From positions 1-64,000 of IMG/VR virus record IMGVR_UViG_3300034061_001913: a DNA stretch of 64,000 nucleotides. The stretch is one strand, 5' to 3'. The position numbers and the translations under genes are program-made. The notes below the pieces were generated by a model. That model did not search any database. It had not been told where the DNA came from and saw only the letters and a list, made by a program, of their open reading frames with translations. This stretch comes from a virus. Positions 4,475-39,519 of this stretch are shown piece after piece; the stretch's first letter is position 1, and every line of letters starts with the position of its first letter.

Positions 4475-4816
4475 ATGAACAAAGTATCAAATTTCATCAA
4501 AGAAGTAACTGCCCGTTTGAAGGGTGACGAAGCAGGTGTCGTAGCTGCAAAAGTTGAACGTAAAGCACAAAGTGCTATTAACGGCCAATTGGCTGCTCTT
4601 AGAGCAAAATTGGTTGACGATGAGACTGCAGTAGAAGACGCTGAAGAAGCTTTCAACACAGCAGTATTCCCAACTAGTGTGTTTACGGACAACCGTCACT
4701 ATGTGACTCAAATCCAATCAGCAAACACTAAATTGGAAGAAGCGAAGGACCAACTTGAAGCTACCAAAGAAGCTATTGCTTTCTTTGAAAAGCTTGTAGC
4801 TGAGAACTTCGACTAA
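4475..4816 (+). CDS. coiled-coil hypothetical protein
   Basis: 113 aa, Ala/Glu/Lys-rich; long A-rich leader; terminator follows. Confidence 0.8.
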   Translation: MNKVSNFIKEVTARLKGDEAGVVAAKVERKAQSAINGQLAALRAKLVDDETAVEDAEEAFNTAVFPTSVFTDNRHYVTQIQSANTKLEEAKDQLEATKEAIAFFEKLVAENFD

Positions 4817-4850
4817 TCATTGACCGGTTTTTATTTTATTATTTAGTAGG

Positions 4851-4887
4851 TATGGGGATTTCTTCGGAGGTCCCCATATTTTTATTT
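4851..4887 (+). terminator. intrinsic terminator
   Basis: TATGGGGA...TTCG...TCCCCATA stem followed by a T-rich tract. Confidence 0.75.
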
Positions 4888-4974
4888 GGTCAGATAGCTA
4901 CTATGTAGCAGTACATCCTGATTGTACTATAAAACTTTAGTTTTATGTGGGGGAGGAACCCACTCTGATCACCA
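4888..4974 (+). tRNA. non-canonical tRNA-like cloverleaf (nominal anticodon CTG, long variable arm, encoded CCA)
   Basis: acceptor GGTCAGA/TCTGATC + A + CCA; D stem GCTA/TAGC; anticodon stem GTACA/TGTAC with 7-nt loop; variable stem ATAAAAC/GTTTTAT; T stem GTGGG/CCCAC with 7-nt loop GGAGGAA. Confidence 0.7.
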
Positions 4975-5062
4975 ATTTATTTCTCAAAAATCTTGCAAGA
5001 CTTGGTAAACCCAAAAATGCCCTCTTGTAAGACACGATACCCTTAACCCTAATAGAAAAAAA

Positions 5063-5110
5063 CAAACACTAAAACACTAAAACACTAAAAAACTAAAACA
5101 CTAAAACACT
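5063..5110 (+). repeat. 8-bp tandem repeat (AAAACACT) x6
   Basis: six units, two of them imperfect, ending immediately before ATG 5111. Confidence 0.9.
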
Positions 5111-5524
5111 ATGAAGAACAAATACAGAAAACCAAAGAAAATCGTTATCATTAACGGTAAAAAACATTTAGCAATCAGAGAAAGAAACTTTATTCCTCCT
5201 AAAGAGGAACCAACAAGAGCTACTCAAGAGTATGCTCTTCCTAAACATACTTCTCTTTTTGTAAAGATTCTAGAAGGAACCATTGAACAGAACTTAGAAT
5301 TCTATTTTAAAAAGATAGAAGTTAACTATAATTTGTTCAGAGAAGAAGCTTCAGCTAAATTACTAGCTGGAGACTATGAAGGTGCTAAACTTCTAGTAGA
5401 AAAATCTAAAGACCTAGAGAAAATACTTAAATCTTCTGCAAGCAAAGCAAAGATTACTTTAATGAGTATTCTTTTTTTGAACTTTGACAAACTAACTAGC
5501 GAAATCGTAAGCCGGTTAGATTAA
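5111..5524 (+). CDS. hypothetical protein
   Basis: 137 aa ORF with a basic N-terminus. Confidence 0.7.
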   Translation: MKNKYRKPKKIVIINGKKHLAIRERNFIPPKEEPTRATQEYALPKHTSLFVKILEGTIEQNLEFYFKKIEVNYNLFREEASAKLLAGDYEGAKLLVEKSKDLEKILKSSASKAKITLMSILFLNFDKLTSEIVSRLD

Positions 5525-5536
5525 CAATCTTTCATA

Positions 5537-5568
5537 GTTACCCCTTTCAGGTAGTGCTGGGGGGTAAC
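5537..5568 (+). terminator. GC-rich hairpin, probable terminator
   Basis: GTTACCCC...GGGGTAAC directly after a stop codon. Confidence 0.55.
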
Positions 5569-5682
5569 AATTTAATTTAAAAACGAATGTTAAACCGAAG
5601 AACAACAGTTGATATTAGCACCAAACCGCCACTTTTGGCAATCTGCTGTTATACGCTGTTTTTCTTCACAAATTAAAATAAG

Positions 5683-5874
5683 ATGCCAGATATTACAATG
5701 TGTACTAATAAAGAATGTCCGCTTTCATATAGTTGTTGGCGGTTTAATTGTCCACCGAGCCAATATGCTCAAAGCTATCAAAAGTTTGAACCGCAGATTG
5801 ATGAAGTGTTGGACGAAGTAGAATGTAAGTTTTACATTAAACCACCTGATGAAGTATGGTCGTCTGCAAAATAG
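5683..5874 (+). CDS. small Cys-rich phage protein (MPDITMC type)
   Basis: C-x4-CP-x4-CWRF...QSY...C pattern. Confidence 0.75.
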   Translation: MPDITMCTNKECPLSYSCWRFNCPPSQYAQSYQKFEPQIDEVLDEVECKFYIKPPDEVWSSAK

Positions 5875-6070
5875 CGTATAATGTTATCGGGCTTGGCGAT
5901 GTTGCCGAACACAAATGTTATTAGGATTACAAAACTTTAAATTATAGATAAAATGTCAAACGAAGAACTGAACGGCAATATTGCCAAACCCGTGTTATAT
6001 GAAGTGCCGAGTTATTAAAAACAAAACTTAATTAGATGAACGAAACAGAAAAACAAAAAGAAAAAAAGCG

Positions 6071-6400
6071 ATGGAAAATACACTGAAAATACCAACTAAT
6101 TGCCCTTATTGCGGACAATTAGTAAATTACTTAAACCATAAACATCATTTGTATATGTATTGTACAAATGAAAAACCAAAAACACTACTTGATGGATTAG
6201 TAAAGAAAGAAATATTGAAAATTAAATACGATTACAACTGCAAACATTACTTTGGTATTGTATCTGCCGAAAGCGAAGAAGAAGCAAAAAAAATATTGCA
6301 TAAAGACCATACTGGGAATGGGGATAAGCTATGTAATTGGAGTAAAACAACAAAAAACGATTGTCAAACAAAATGTCAACTAACTTTAAAAATAAAATAA
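6071..6400 (+). CDS. zinc-ribbon hypothetical protein
   Basis: CPYC...YMYC. Confidence 0.55.
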   Translation: MENTLKIPTNCPYCGQLVNYLNHKHHLYMYCTNEKPKTLLDGLVKKEILKIKYDYNCKHYFGIVSAESEEEAKKILHKDHTGNGDKLCNWSKTTKNDCQTKCQLTLKIK

Positions 6401-6401
6401 T

Positions 6402-6800
6402 ATGAAAACAAGTGAATTAAGAATTGGTAATTACATTAAATTGATGCTGAACGATGAAGATTTTGCAATCGTTCAAGTTACTTTGAATGACTTAGAAGCT
6501 GTCGATAATAAAAAAGGTGTTTATGAGCCAATGCCATTAAAAGAAGAATGGTTATTAAAGAATAAATTTTTTGTAGAAAAATTTGATTATAGCATACCTA
6601 TTTCAGATTGTGAAGTCGTATGGCTTACTTTGATACCACAGGATGAAGAGTGTACTGCGTATTCAGTTTGCGTTACCCAAACAGATGAAGATGAACTTGA
6701 CCAAAATGTATTTTTATCCGACATAAGCTATGTTCATCAATTACAAAACTTATACTTTGCATTAACTGGTAAAGAATTAGACTATGAAGAAGAATTTTAA
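6402..6800 (+). CDS. conserved Bacteroidota-phage hypothetical protein
   Basis: ELRIGN N-terminus and YVHQLQNLYFALTG.EL C-terminus. Confidence 0.8.
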   Translation: MKTSELRIGNYIKLMLNDEDFAIVQVTLNDLEAVDNKKGVYEPMPLKEEWLLKNKFFVEKFDYSIPISDCEVVWLTLIPQDEECTAYSVCVTQTDEDELDQNVFLSDISYVHQLQNLYFALTGKELDYEEEF

Positions 6801-7086
6801 AAGTGCGGTGGCTTTTTTCTTTTTGTTTTTCCTTCACGGAACTTCAATTGGAACACGTCAGCAAGGCATTTCATATAACTTGCGGCTTTGCGCTACCCCC
6901 TCTTTTTCTATCATTATAAAAGAAATAAAAAATAAATGAAAACGAACTTTAAAAAACCGCTAATCATTGTTTTAATAGCAATATGAAAGTAGAAGAAAAA
7001 GAAGTATGGAAAGAATGGCAAAAAAGTGACAAAAGAGAACAATAATAAATCAAACAAACAATTAAAAACAATTAAAAACAAGTATT

Positions 7087-7644
7087 ATGACAAACACAAC
7101 AAACACACAAAACCCAGTAGTTGCTATCGGAGCATGGATTAACCCTAATGCAACTCTTCGTCCCGTAAGCGTGATGATGGAACAAAAAGGCGAACCTACT
7201 AACCTTATTGGTTTTATGCTAGGTCAAAAGAATCGCAGAGTAGTTACTGTTTCTTTCACAGAAGAAGTAGCTAATGCTATTGGTATTAACGTTGACGACT
7301 TAGGCAACGGTTACGATAACGTAACTCCAATTAATATCAACATGAGTGCTATTCTTCCTTTCCCAGTTAAAATTCGTATCGTAGAATCTACAGATGCGAA
7401 ATGGGCCGAAGAAAACTATGCTTCTATCAAGAAAGCAGGTAAAGACGGTGCAGAACTAATTACTGCTGATGGAGAAAACATCTATCGTAAGCAGGAATTT
7501 GTTCAAGTTGCAGAAGACGGTTCTAGCGATGACATTCTTGTTTCTCACATTCCTGTGAAAGACATGAACATTGACTTGAAAGAGTCTACTGTAAAAGCTA
7601 CCGGTAAAGCTACAGCTAAGCTTGAGCCAAGTCCAGTATTTTAA
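7087..7644 (+). CDS. conserved crAss-like protein, possibly ssDNA-binding
   Basis: 185 aa beta-rich; K.AG..G...G.NIYR...D..V.H; function is a guess. Confidence 0.55.
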   Translation: MTNTTNTQNPVVAIGAWINPNATLRPVSVMMEQKGEPTNLIGFMLGQKNRRVVTVSFTEEVANAIGINVDDLGNGYDNVTPININMSAILPFPVKIRIVESTDAKWAEENYASIKKAGKDGAELITADGENIYRKQEFVQVAEDGSSDDILVSHIPVKDMNIDLKESTVKATGKATAKLEPSPVF

Positions 7645-7672
7645 TCTAACCTTATTAGATTAACCAATTAAC

Positions 7673-7775
7673 ATAGCTACTGTAGTCTTTTGATTACAGT
7701 AGCTATTTTAACCCTAAACAATAAAACATTTCATAGTGTTTAAGATAGTAGTAGTAATTTTGCTACTACTATCTT
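7673..7775. repeat. two adjacent long hairpins
   Basis: ATAGCTACTGTAGTC/GATTACAGTAGCTAT (7673-7706) and AAGATAGTAGTAGTAA/TTGCTACTACTATCTT (7742-7775). Confidence 0.8.
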
Positions 7776-7796
7776 CCTGTGTAAAAATCTTATATA

Positions 7797-7961
7797 ATGT
7801 TTACTTTACAGATAACAAAAGAAACCAAAAAGGCTATAGAAAAAGAAATTTTATCTTTAGAAGATAAGATTCGCTATAGACCTGTAGAGTTCGTAAGAGA
7901 ACAAATTGCTAAAAAAGAACTCTTACAAGAGTTGCTAATACATGCTATTATTTTAGATTAA
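7797..7961 (+). CDS. small hypothetical protein (not in ORF track)
   Basis: 54 aa ORF MFTLQITKETKK... Confidence 0.55.
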   Translation: MFTLQITKETKKAIEKEILSLEDKIRYRPVEFVREQIAKKELLQELLIHAIILD

Positions 7962-7972
7962 AAACTAATGTT

Positions 7973-8182
7973 ATGCTAAATAAATTGATTAAAAACAACC
8001 CAATAATACAAAAGCTTAAGTTTTTTGGTAAAAAGCCAGAAATCAAAGAAGCTGAAAAATTTGAAGATTGGTTTTCTCGTTTAAACCCAGACTACAATTT
8101 TGAACAAGGTCAGTTTAATGAATTCCAACTTAACATAAGAAAACAGACTTATAAAAATTATGGTAATACAGAAGATAACTAA
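7973..8182 (+). CDS. hypothetical protein
   Basis: 69 aa ORF in operon context. Confidence 0.6.
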   Translation: MLNKLIKNNPIIQKLKFFGKKPEIKEAEKFEDWFSRLNPDYNFEQGQFNEFQLNIRKQTYKNYGNTEDN

Positions 8183-15225: not shown

Positions 15226-15531
15226 ATGGAAACACCTGAAAGCTGGGTAATATTAAAACTACCAAACAACTGCTATAAAGTTTTTGGAACTTGGGCTGGT
15301 GGTTATCTAGACGGGGATAGATGGAAGTTAAACTCTGGAATAGAAAAAGTTGAACAAGAAGATGATTACTATTATTTTATAGGATTTAGTGGGAGTTGTT
15401 ATAAGTGTCACAAGAAAGGATATGGAACAGCAACATCCTATGGATTAGGCATTCTGAATAAAATAATAGAGGAAGGAAATGGTCAGATTGAACTAATGGA
15501 AGATAGTGGTGATTGGTCAAATGTAATATAA
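15226..15531 (+). CDS. conserved phage hypothetical protein
   Basis: YKVFGTWAGGYLDGDRWKLNSGI...SGSCYKC motif. Confidence 0.8.
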   Translation: METPESWVILKLPNNCYKVFGTWAGGYLDGDRWKLNSGIEKVEQEDDYYYFIGFSGSCYKCHKKGYGTATSYGLGILNKIIEEGNGQIELMEDSGDWSNVI

Positions 15532-15588
15532 CGGTTGCAGGTATATTTAGTCCCGAATTTAAAAACGAAAAACAATGAATAACTAAAA

Positions 15589-15888
15589 ATGATAAAAGCA
15601 ACATTAGATTATTGGAACCCACGAAACGAAACGGTTGTAACTGAATCGGGATTCTGTTATCTTGATACCACATCGGTTATCACCAGAACGAAAGATATAT
15701 CGGATAATACCGAGATAGGTTTGTTTGAGCAATTCTACAAACTTAATAATAGTTTGCGGTATTGCAATGGCTCATACTATACGTTCCAAGATAAACAATG
15801 GGAAAACAAGTATAAAGAGTGGTTAAAGTCAGATGACTACAAGAAGAAATCGTTTGAACTTTATTACGGAAACGGAGTAGTTGATTAA
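15589..15888 (+). CDS. hypothetical protein
   Basis: 99 aa ORF. Confidence 0.7.
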   Translation: MIKATLDYWNPRNETVVTESGFCYLDTTSVITRTKDISDNTEIGLFEQFYKLNNSLRYCNGSYYTFQDKQWENKYKEWLKSDDYKKKSFELYYGNGVVD

Positions 15889-29855: not shown

Positions 29856-30315
29856 TAGAATTTACATACCGGGAACTCTTGTTAAAAAGATAGACGGTAC
29901 TATACAACTCGATGGAGACCGTGATTTAATGCAAAGTTATTTCACGGAACTCCTTCGGGGAGATAACTACTGTGATGTAGAGATTTGTTTTATTAGAAAC
30001 GAAGACAAGAAGAGTAATCCACAGCTGCGTTATTTCTTTGGTATTGTTCTTCCTATCATTAAGCAAGCATTTGAAGAAATGCAAGGTGAGAGCTATTCTA
30101 AAGATGAGGTAGTTAACTTGCTTAAGGATATGTACTTTTATGAAGAAAAGTATTCTCCTATTAGCCAAGACACTATCAAAGTACCTATGAGTTTAGAGCA
30201 TGCTAAAAAAGCAGAGTTGGCTAAATTTATAGAGAAGTGTGTTACTTTTGCAACAGAGATACTTAATGTAAGTATCCCAGACTCCGCTAATTACATTAAG
30301 AAAGATGGCTTTTGA
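29848..30315 (+). CDS. NinB/Orf-like protein
   Basis: KSNPQLRYFFG...LK...FIE...IP. Confidence 0.6.
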   Translation: MINRIYIPGTLVKKIDGTIQLDGDRDLMQSYFTELLRGDNYCDVEICFIRNEDKKSNPQLRYFFGIVLPIIKQAFEEMQGESYSKDEVVNLLKDMYFYEEKYSPISQDTIKVPMSLEHAKKAELAKFIEKCVTFATEILNVSIPDSANYIKKDGF

Positions 30316-38814: not shown

Positions 38815-39052
38815 GTATTGTTTTTTCTTTTACTAACAAAGTCTTTTTCTGGACTTGAAGCGAATCGACTTTTGTGTTTAACTTATTTATCTCTGAGTAG
38901 ATAGAGTCTAATTTAGTATCACGGACAGATGTCTCGTAGTTCTGTGAGCAAGATTTAAAAATTAAAACCAAGCCTAAAAAAAGAACAATCAAGGATACAG
39001 TATCCAAGAGTATAGTAAAGTTAGTCTTTAGTACAGAGTTTAATTTCTTCAT
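38699..39052 (-). CDS. membrane-anchored coiled-coil protein, spanin-like
   Basis: TM helix, Cys, coiled coil; coupled to the endolysin. Confidence 0.55.
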   Translation of the reverse strand: MKKLNSVLKTNFTILLDTVSLIVLFLGLVLIFKSCSQNYETSVRDTKLDSIYSEINKLNTKVDSLQVQKKTLLVKEKTIHEEHLKTIERIILTADSSQHIITEELIREHKALDSAIK

Positions 39053-39519
39053 TAGTCTTTTACCTCAAAATGCATAAAATCTCGATTTTGCTCTCTACCT
39101 AAAGATGTTAAGCCGTTCTTATAAGCTATGTCAATCATAGCTTTATATTCTGGTCTTGCAAATCTTGCAGTCTTGCTAGTTTCTTTAAGTTGGTTTCTTT
39201 CTGGGTCCAAGTCAATTGCAATTCCCCAAGAATGGCGACTAAATTCTGTACCGCCTCTCATAGCTCTGTAATTGAAACATCCGCCAAAAATATCTATGCC
39301 CAGCTCTACTAGCTTTTCATATCCGTAATGGGCCAAGAGTTCATTAAAGAATCCTGTGAATCTATCAGCAGCTAGTCTATGGCATTTCATCTTAGTTACT
39401 TTAACAGACTTATCCCAGGCTAGTCGCATAGGATAAGGTAAGTTGATAGTAACAAGGTATGGTTTTCCGTCTTGAGTTGGTTTACCATATTTCTCAAAAC
39501 ATTGTTTTTGGGTTATCAT
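39052..39519 (-). CDS. endolysin, peptidase M15 family
   Basis: FNYR...SRHSWGIAIDL...DFMHFE. Confidence 0.88.
   Translation of the reverse strand: MITQKQCFEKYGKPTQDGKPYLVTINLPYPMRLAWDKSVKVTKMKCHRLAADRFTGFFNELLAHYGYEKLVELGIDIFGGCFNYRAMRGGTEFSRHSWGIAIDLDPERNQLKETSKTARFARPEYKAMIDIAYKNGLTSLGREQNRDFMHFEVKD

Follow-up and report, generated by a model that had tools for sequence, protein, structure and literature searches.

Is the stretch between positions 5538 and 6895 of a lake-water phage a set of gene cassettes like those exchanged by integrons, and would it then belong to an integron in the classical sense? Classical integrons comprise the integrase IntI, the attI site and cassettes with attC sites, and their sedentary chromosomal forms feature homogeneous sites of about 125 nt. 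The question arises from the viral record IMGVR_UViG_3300034061_001913 (74 kb, 64% complete), the first 64,000 nucleotides of which are termed the window here and supply the positions given below. A preliminary description of this DNA had proposed integron attC-like cassettes. When the sequence was re-read, the two units A and B, the palindrome between them and the flanking half-sites were all recovered where that description had placed them. According to the present analysis, the locus represents, with a probability of about 0.65, a small, partly decayed array of integron-like, hairpin-bounded cassettes with Bacteroidota-wide sites and an Xer/XerA-like enzyme. The hairpin-bounded, integron-like character of the cassettes is retained in this reading, while the assignment to classical integrons is given up because of the Xer/XerA-like enzyme and the absence of the attC consensus. 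The reading is carried by membership in a site family, by the structure of the sites, by the pairing of cassette ends, by bacterial arrays with a recombinase and by a difference in gene content from a relative. The preliminary description had come upon a genuine member of an integron-like cassette system and had largely read its logic correctly, its interpretation being supported in part.

From left to right, the array comprises a degenerate site and cassette A, then the intact site and cassette B, and finally a 5' half-site. Its parts are listed below together with a more distant candidate; bit scores refer to R1, a covariance model built from alignment A2 (98 diverse site copies).

5538-5651, + strand: degenerate left-hand site (R1 25.4 bits, E 0.002; blastn matches to sites in L020, L112 and L109)
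5652-5878, + strand: cassette A, whose start TACGCTGTTTT pairs with its end AAAATAGCGTA (13/15 including the cores)
5879-5997, + strand: intact hairpin site (R1 107.6 bits, E 5e-22), with the R1 family layout except for the core TAAT
5998-6879, + strand: cassette B, with leader 5998-6080, open reading frames (ORFs) 6071-6400 and 6402-6800, and trailer 6794-6879
6876-6895, + strand: right-hand 5' half-site remnant, TAAC-TT-GCGGCTTTGCG (6876-6892) followed by unrelated sequence, with no 3' arm
15529-15659, + strand: possible third, divergent site, unconfirmed (R1 23.2 bits, E 0.007)

The intact site and its family

The intact site consists of the core TAAT, the spacer GTTAT, a 5' arm (5888-5907), an A-rich loop (5908-5972), a 3' arm (5973-5992) and the box TGTTA (5993-5997). 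Its stem joins 5889-5907 to 5973-5991 across a 65-nt loop, with 18/19 positions paired if G.T is counted. The predicted fold of the central stem reaches -36.5 kcal/mol on the + strand and -29.1 on the - strand; judged by the z value of -3.7 for the + strand, the stem folds better there than expected by chance. An ATG in the loop at 5954 opens an ORF of merely 21 codons, which ends at 6019. The first relatives, detected by blastn at 73% identity over 5879-5997, were copies in Flavobacterium phages of the genus Muminvirus, which are situated in the gap between two DNA methyltransferase genes, and a three-way alignment with these copies revealed three compensatory changes in the stem. The intact site matches about 100 loci, and homology stops at 5997-5999. 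Distribution was counted by means of an invariant 17-mer of the 3' arm and box, which gives lower bounds for both tallies: at least 120 viral contigs (IMG/VR) and at least 120 Bacteroidota genomes. The bacterial carriers include Flavobacterium, Chitinophaga, Algoriphagus, Saprospiraceae, Sphingobacteriaceae, Cytophagales and metagenome-assembled genomes of Bacteroidales, so that the family is found both in Bacteroidota hosts and in phages. In the order of genome G004 (Bacteroidales), 13/26 sampled genomes carry R1 sites.

The A2 consensus begins with TAAC and a 5-nt spacer, which are followed by a stem of about 20 bp that opens with CGGGCTTGGCGAAG, a loop of 10-65 nt, the matching arm ending with TTTTGCCAAACCCG, and TGTTA. 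In alignment columns, this corresponds to a helix 5-8/135-138, a spacer of 5 nt on one side and 1 nt on the other, a helix 16-35/113-133 and a variable loop. Across the 98 copies, 95.2% of the cells are paired, with changes on both sides in 14/23 pairs. The covariation on which the preliminary description had made its proposal depend is present: 264 cells are altered on both sides, compared with 82.5 ± 6.1 in shuffles (0/500 reach 264), and the covariation score is 0.316, compared with 0.025-0.053 when the partners are slid. G.U is fixed at two positions (in 93/98 and in 98/98 copies) and a C.A mismatch is conserved at one, and therefore one strand always folds better. This mismatch and the two G.T pairs favour one strand in place of the bulged extrahelical bases of attC, none of which occur in the family. 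The only ends conserved in sequence are (T/C)AAC and TGTTA, the corresponding boxes of the window being GTATAAT and GTTATAT. Accordingly, window and family alike depart from the 7-bp consensus RYYYAAC...GTTRRRY, and the earlier suspicion of a family distinct from canonical attC, which now has its own covarying model, is borne out. The core is TAAC in 97/98 copies (C in alignment column 8), the TAAT of the window copy being the exception. Based on these comparisons, 5879-5997 is a strong member of a Bacteroidota hairpin-site family. No published description of the family as a whole was found; the literature covers it in fragments only.

Other identities of the element were tried and rejected. 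When the arms were considered as copies of a palindromic operator (TTGGC-N6-GCCAA), 15 matches were obtained with 14.7 expected, and the arms of relatives are not self-palindromic. A peptide-coding role of the conserved 3' box is incompatible with loop ATGs that enter the box in two different frames and with a covarying stem, and a sigma-54 promoter in the 3' arm with the wrong GG/GC spacing. Likewise, an Rfam search of 4500-8000 at E up to 10 returned nothing at the element. Regarding the loop, a 117-nt bacterial form of the site (e.g., L135 and L226) has a long loop in which a motif of about 21 nt resembling CACAAATGTTGATGCGGAGAAC is repeated two or three times in degenerate form, and a related motif recurs in cassette leaders (…CGATAAACTTAAATTGAA).

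Pairing between the ends of a cassette

Both units of the window are bounded by inverted repeats. In unit A, GTTATACGCTGTTTT (5648-5662) and AAAATAGCGTATAAT (5868-5882) are complementary at 13/15 positions and flank a single ORF (5683-5874) for a Cys-rich product of 63 aa, which has its stop codon inside the end repeat and a weak match to phrog_20586 (function unassigned in PHROGs). In unit B, GTTATATGAAGTGCC (5994-6008) and GGCATTTCATATAAC (6865-6879) are complementary at 14/15 positions, the sole mismatch being G.T, and at 11/11 beyond the GTTA core if G.T is counted. Here, the start TATGAAGTGCC pairs with the end GGCATTTCATA, and a second paired block joins 6047-6069 to 6811-6833. The first ORF of this cassette (6071-6400, 109 aa) contains a CxxC motif, and the second (6402-6800, 132 aa) matches phrog_10066 (function unassigned in PHROGs) and resembles Muminvirus gp012. 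Annotation covered Pfam and PHROGs; the genes of both cassettes are without a Pfam match, and no methyltransferase is among them.

The repeats might be dismissed as chance matches in AT-rich DNA, and counts within the window are indeed at chance level. Repeats of 15 nt are not significant there, with 59 inverted-repeat pairs of at least 12 nt in 2.5 kb, and GTTA-X...Y-TAAC pairs are not enriched (7 observed and 10.4 simulated at ≥9/11; 1 and 0.8 at ≥10). The comparison across loci decides the matter. At loci with at least two sites, the 12 nt after TGTTA were set against the 12 nt before the next TAAC, which are the two ends of one unit. Such same-unit pairs were complementary at ≥8/12 in 17/42 cases (mean 6.2), as opposed to 1/130 for the two flanks of the same hairpin (mean 4.0) and a random-pair rate of 0.021. 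Moreover, leader and trailer of unit B recur at 83-93% identity in nine further loci (L023, L033, L036, L037, L054, L067, L111, L123 and L140) around different cargo. Because of this flank test and the recurrence of the same unit-B ends in at least seven other contigs, the repeats are considered real, for which the statistics of the window alone would be insufficient; as they also abut a 108-bit site, the probability of a chance origin is negligible. The cassette-specific inverted ends reported in the preliminary description are the key diagnostic feature.

The end sequences vary from unit to unit and match within a unit, and where they mismatch, it is always by a G.T in one fixed position (start AGT, end ATT). 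Variable ends that match within a unit fit base pairing and not an end recognised by a protein. They also bear on the idea that a transposase or an HUH enzyme moves the cassettes as small non-autonomous transposons, which would be of the MITE type or, with subterminal hairpins, of the IS200/IS605 type. The ends of IS608 have a fixed tetranucleotide adjoining a hairpin, which the tetranucleotide beside the hairpins described here resembles, and the units do bear the terminal inverted repeats GTTA...TAAC. Terminal repeats that differ between units and match within each are at odds with this idea, as is the arrangement of the units, which lie head to tail in one orientation and are not scattered. 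In addition, the only recurrent enzyme family among ORFs within 3 kb of the sites is a tyrosine recombinase, HUH families not having been searched separately. Transposition in this manner is therefore rated very improbable. In favour of paired ends, the duplex of the 80-nt leader with the 85-nt trailer of unit B was computed at -48.2 kcal/mol, with controls at -15.8 ± 4.8, and a simulated circle junction of unit B folds to -81.9, compared with -51.8 for the array form. Integron cassettes themselves were originally identified as circular units through such complementarity of start and end. Start-to-end pairing within one cassette is an integron-cassette signature.

In one variant of cassette B, about 140-150 nt (6079-6217) are missing and with them the N-terminal part of ORF 6071-6400. 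This variant was observed in L033 (367-368), where 6218-6412 is 99% identical, and in contigs of lake metagenomes, which show joints from 6067/6076 to 6218.

Recombinase and bacterial arrays

Clustering by blastp of the ORFs located within 3 kb of sites identified a tyrosine recombinase of about 300-350 aa with the domains PF13495 and PF00589. Homologues lie near sites at 15 bacterial loci and at 4 viral ones, in every case on the side of TGTTA. The best model for the bacterial enzyme is XerA_Arch (216.5 bits, cut-off 220), the IntI model TIGR02249 giving 203.9 bits (cut-off 265). XerA_Arch is also the best model for the phage enzyme encoded at L245:1183-2079 (206 bits, TIGR02249 154.8 bits), which shares 38% identity with its bacterial counterpart (E 1e-64). 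The TIGR02249 match of the site-associated recombinases is split into two stretches, leaving the middle of the IntI model unmatched, and the closest solved structure of the phage enzyme is Pyrococcus XerA (4a8e), IntI4 matching its C-terminus only. Judged by these profile matches, the enzyme that accompanies the sites elsewhere is Xer/XerA-like and devoid of the IntI-specific segment. The arrangement is illustrated by the Bacteroidota genome G007, where 91 or more sites were counted, most of them in two arrays that each keep to one strand (C1 4304934-4401936, about 97 kb, and 12792-55733, about 43 kb), each with a recombinase gene at most 2 kb from its TGTTA end that reads into the array; one G007 copy of the recombinase beside sites is encoded at 4402455-4403483. 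Within the arrays of this genome, additional paralogues of the recombinase (36% identity) are located at 4305216, 4338589, 4372701 and 13074.

The orientation of the genes differs between bacteria and phages. At bacterial loci, genes are mostly encoded on the strand opposite to the site (92 vs. 20) with the stop codon 10-20 nt from TGTTA, so that the gene is followed by its site. At viral loci, genes are co-oriented with the site (111 vs. 11) and follow it. In phages, the hairpin consequently sits 5' of its gene, which is the mirror image of the integron layout. Since gene orientation flips while the asymmetry of the site stays fixed, a role at the DNA level is favoured.

These data also bear on the alternative that the hairpin has its function in RNA, where it would mark a processing site, stabilise the polycistronic early transcripts or serve to initiate their translation, with the end pairing enclosing each message. 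Such a role is suggested by the G.U wobbles, which make the transcribed (+) strand the better folder, by the co-orientation of phage sites and genes, and by the A-rich loop, which often holds a start codon: a methylase gene at L245:356-1150 (PF01555, E 1e-43) starts inside the site at 282-401, and the annotated Muminvirus methylase starts in the loop. However, bacterial genes on the other strand yield transcripts with the mismatched complement, short-loop forms are without any ATG, loop ATGs occur in two different frames, arrays are headed by a recombinase, and the loop ORF of the window stops after its 21 codons. As the sole explanation an RNA function is therefore unlikely, although in phages it could exist on top of a DNA role.

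Where the units break

The point of exchange had been placed at G^TT of the 3' box. Homology breakpoints argue against this position and point to the TAAC|G side of the + strand. Among 93 pairs of loci that share only the downstream flank, 61% have hairpin centres at least 90% identical, and the centre is linked to that flank. Pairs sharing only the upstream flank (n = 7) all differ in their centres; their identity continues through TAACG and is lost in the spacer. The window locus was additionally compared with 24 sequencing runs, all of them assembled contigs of lake or freshwater metagenomes, in which partial shares and uncovered parts were not counted as evidence. In three lake-metagenome runs, contigs carry the same unit-B trailer and part from the window immediately after the TAAC at 6879. 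Taken together, the linkage of the centre, the break after TAACG and the divergence at 6879 suggest an exchange at or next to TAAC|G on the + strand, with site-then-gene as the phage unit. This putative geometry of the phage site is also that of attC in its bottom strand, which reads 5'-...AA|C, spacer, helix...

Gene content can be compared with L247, the only syntenic relative found, which shares the genes flanking the array (window 5135-5580 and 7045-7586). The 598 nt between these shared anchors in L247 contain two ORFs unrelated to those of the window and are free of sites, and one gene further on L247 carries a 58-bit site together with about 1.9 kb of extra genes. Gene content at the array locus thus differs between the two phages, but the breakpoints lie near the sites and not exactly at the cores.

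Outer half-sites and neighbouring features

The outer sites of the array are incomplete. In the degenerate left-hand site, only the loop and the 3' arm are recognisable, as CGCCACTTTTGGCAATCTGC-TGTTA at 5627-5651; this is the 3' half-site CGCCACTTTTGGCAATCTGCTGTTA of the preliminary description, which lies inside the degenerate full-length match. Its 5' part is taken up by a separate local hairpin, GTTACCCC...GGGGTAAC (5538-5566), directly after the upstream gene. This hairpin is kept in L247 (4305-4336; 82.7% over 5530-5580) and looks like a terminator outside the cassette site. The right-hand half-site yields no R1 match over 6876-6895, and its homology to L067, L111, L140 and L054 extends to 6890-6892.

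The candidate at 15529-15659 lies at a gene junction, with ATAAC at the stop of ORF 15226-15531, an 8-bp stem AGTCCCGA/TCGGGATT that includes G.T, a loop and TGTTA, and the loop ATG at 15589 starts ORF 15589-15888. A complementary cassette end was looked for as a partner of its flank and was not found. Upstream of the array, six tandem copies of the 8-nt unit AAACACTA occupy 5056-5111, directly before the ATG of ORF 5111-5524; a search for relatives by means of this ORF found none.

A proposed mechanism and the points against it

In the reading preferred here, the + strand would fold when single-stranded, its outer helix being formed by TAAC/GTTA and the complementary ends of the cassette itself, followed by the unpaired spacer of 5 nt and 1 nt, the conserved inner helix and the variable loop. 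A recombinase dimer would bind both helices and exchange strands at or beside TAAC|G. Recombination of adjacent sites would then free a cassette circle, in which the two ends of the cassette extend the hairpin, and recombination of such a circle with a resident site would lead to insertion. The unit would be site-then-gene in phages, co-oriented with early transcription and often with a start codon provided by the loop, and gene-then-site in bacteria. Within this scheme, single-strand folding, the cleavage point, the circles and the supply of a recombinase in trans are the steps that we infer.

Several observations weigh against this reading. No tyrosine recombinase (PF00589) was matched in the 74-kb record, itself 64% complete, which extends the earlier remark that the window has no integrase to the rest of the record; likewise, two complete Muminvirus genomes that carry sites are without a recombinase. 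Any exchange would consequently need an enzyme from the host or from a co-infecting element. The 24 runs contained no circle and no precise excision junction, assembled contigs being of a kind that hides circles, rare junctions and the strand. The breakpoints in L247 are about 65 nt and about 165 nt away from the cores, in phages that are too distant for exact mapping. Of the pairs that share the downstream flank, 16% have a different centre, and a larger pair set shows no clear linkage of the spacer to one flank or the other (0.18 with a background of 0.14). One leader/trailer pair surrounds different cargo, which a single crossover point does not account for. Finally, activity of the array in this phage is hypothetical and the array looks decayed: with TAAT at the putative cleavage core and with halves in place of both outer sites, it may be inert.

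Some of these observations would be accommodated if the sites were repeated regulatory or spacer modules and the genes were shuffled by ordinary homologous recombination between conserved boxes of 14-19 nt, with no dedicated recombinase. Comparable shuffling has been proposed for the promoter-stem-loop (PeSL) repeats of T4-type phages. The boxes are identical in many contigs, and the unlinked centres and spacers, the exchange of cargo within one leader/trailer pair and the complete site-bearing genomes that have no recombinase are in line with this proposal. Since the centre differs in 16% of the downstream-sharing pairs, homologous exchange inside the conserved boxes probably does occur as well. 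As the full account it is improbable, given that it does not explain why the variable start of each cassette is complementary to its own end, why the strand asymmetry is fixed, or why same-strand arrays of more than 90 sites stand beside a recombinase gene. The array of integron-like, hairpin-bounded cassettes remains the preferred explanation.

Comparison with known systems

The family resembles classical integrons in its imperfect two-helix hairpin sites with an unpaired central spacer and a variable end loop, in its AAC...GTT cores and strand asymmetry, in cassette starts that are complementary to the core region at their own end, and in the long arrays of bacterial chromosomes, which keep to one strand and adjoin a tyrosine recombinase. 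It differs in its Xer/XerA-like enzyme, which scores below the IntI cut-off, as well as in the consensus and in the mismatches and wobbles described above. Furthermore, pairing of the cassette ends extends over 12-85 nt, unlike the 7 nt of classical integrons. The phage site comes before its gene, for which it can provide the start codon, while bacterial loci of the family keep the order gene-then-site (92/112), and in the bacterial arrays the recombinase gene is co-directional with the cassettes, again unlike the classical layout.

In CTXphi, a folded attP(+), and in the pdif modules of Acinetobacter plasmids, two arms of about 11 bp around a short central region are presented to a Xer-type recombinase of the host, either as a folded single strand or as paired inverted sites, and modules are bounded by inversely oriented sites. 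The sites described here have no sequence relation to these, and their outer arm is cassette-specific and conserved only as pairing. The bacterial arrays of the family also differ in having a dedicated recombinase gene of their own.

A further parallel is rAID-1, in which a XerD-like recombinase lies 5' of at least two co-directional genes that are separated by repetitive sequences described as "reminiscent of integrons", and which was reported for 226/423 Bacteroidales genomes with a recombinase at least 44% identical to BF9343_RS08045 as criterion (Ross et al., 2019, bioRxiv 10.1101/471110). That study covers chromosomes of gut Bacteroidales and immunity genes, and does not deal with phages, hairpin structure or cassette-end pairing (bioRxiv 10.1101/471110). 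The array layout of G007 and the share of Bacteroidales genomes with sites (13/26) are similar, as judged from the published description; the array in the window differs in having no recombinase.

Among phages, a cluster of attC sites lacking an integrase (CALIN) with two methyltransferases was described in Polaribacter phage P12002L (Qi et al., 2023; PMC9892861). One of its sites, P12002L_attC1, is located between the methyltransferase genes gp35 and gp36 (supplementary Table S3), was treated as an ordinary attC predicted by HattCI alone, and was the only tested site without a verified IntI1 junction (PMC9892861), which fits a different recombinase. By eye, its architecture is that of the family, with TAAC, a 5-nt spacer, stem, loop, stem, T and TGTTA. 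Its stem, however, is divergent, and R1 gives no match there at E ≤1 and weak matches elsewhere in the genome. The site attC2 of the same phage, which did recombine, lies on the other strand and is without the family architecture. On the minus strand of P12002L (L246), divergent TAAC...TGTTA sites were observed at about 29990-30045, 38850-38920 and 39110-39240 in gaps beside methyltransferase genes, one of them being P12002L_attC1.

Implications for Bacteroidota and their phages

Gene capture as presented in textbooks is the domain of integrons and is tied to IntI and mostly to Proteobacteria. The system described here would follow the same logic of folded single-strand sites, circular cassettes and long arrays with a different recombinase branch, throughout a phylum and including its phages. 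We tentatively propose, at somewhat less than even odds, that Bacteroidota phages take part in the Xer-like cassette economy of their hosts by means of mirrored units in which the hairpin doubles as a translation start, and that lytic phages without a recombinase borrow the host enzyme to swap early or anti-defence genes. For its part, the window contributes a small, decayed example without methyltransferases, which is mainly useful with regard to the erosion of arrays. If the recombinase acts on these sites, the system would account for the shuffling of genes in the early regions of Bacteroidota phages and would provide a sequence model for cassettes that are missed by tools of the IntegronFinder type. 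Under the same premise, the immunity arrays known as rAID-1 in gut Bacteroidales would become part of something much more widespread.

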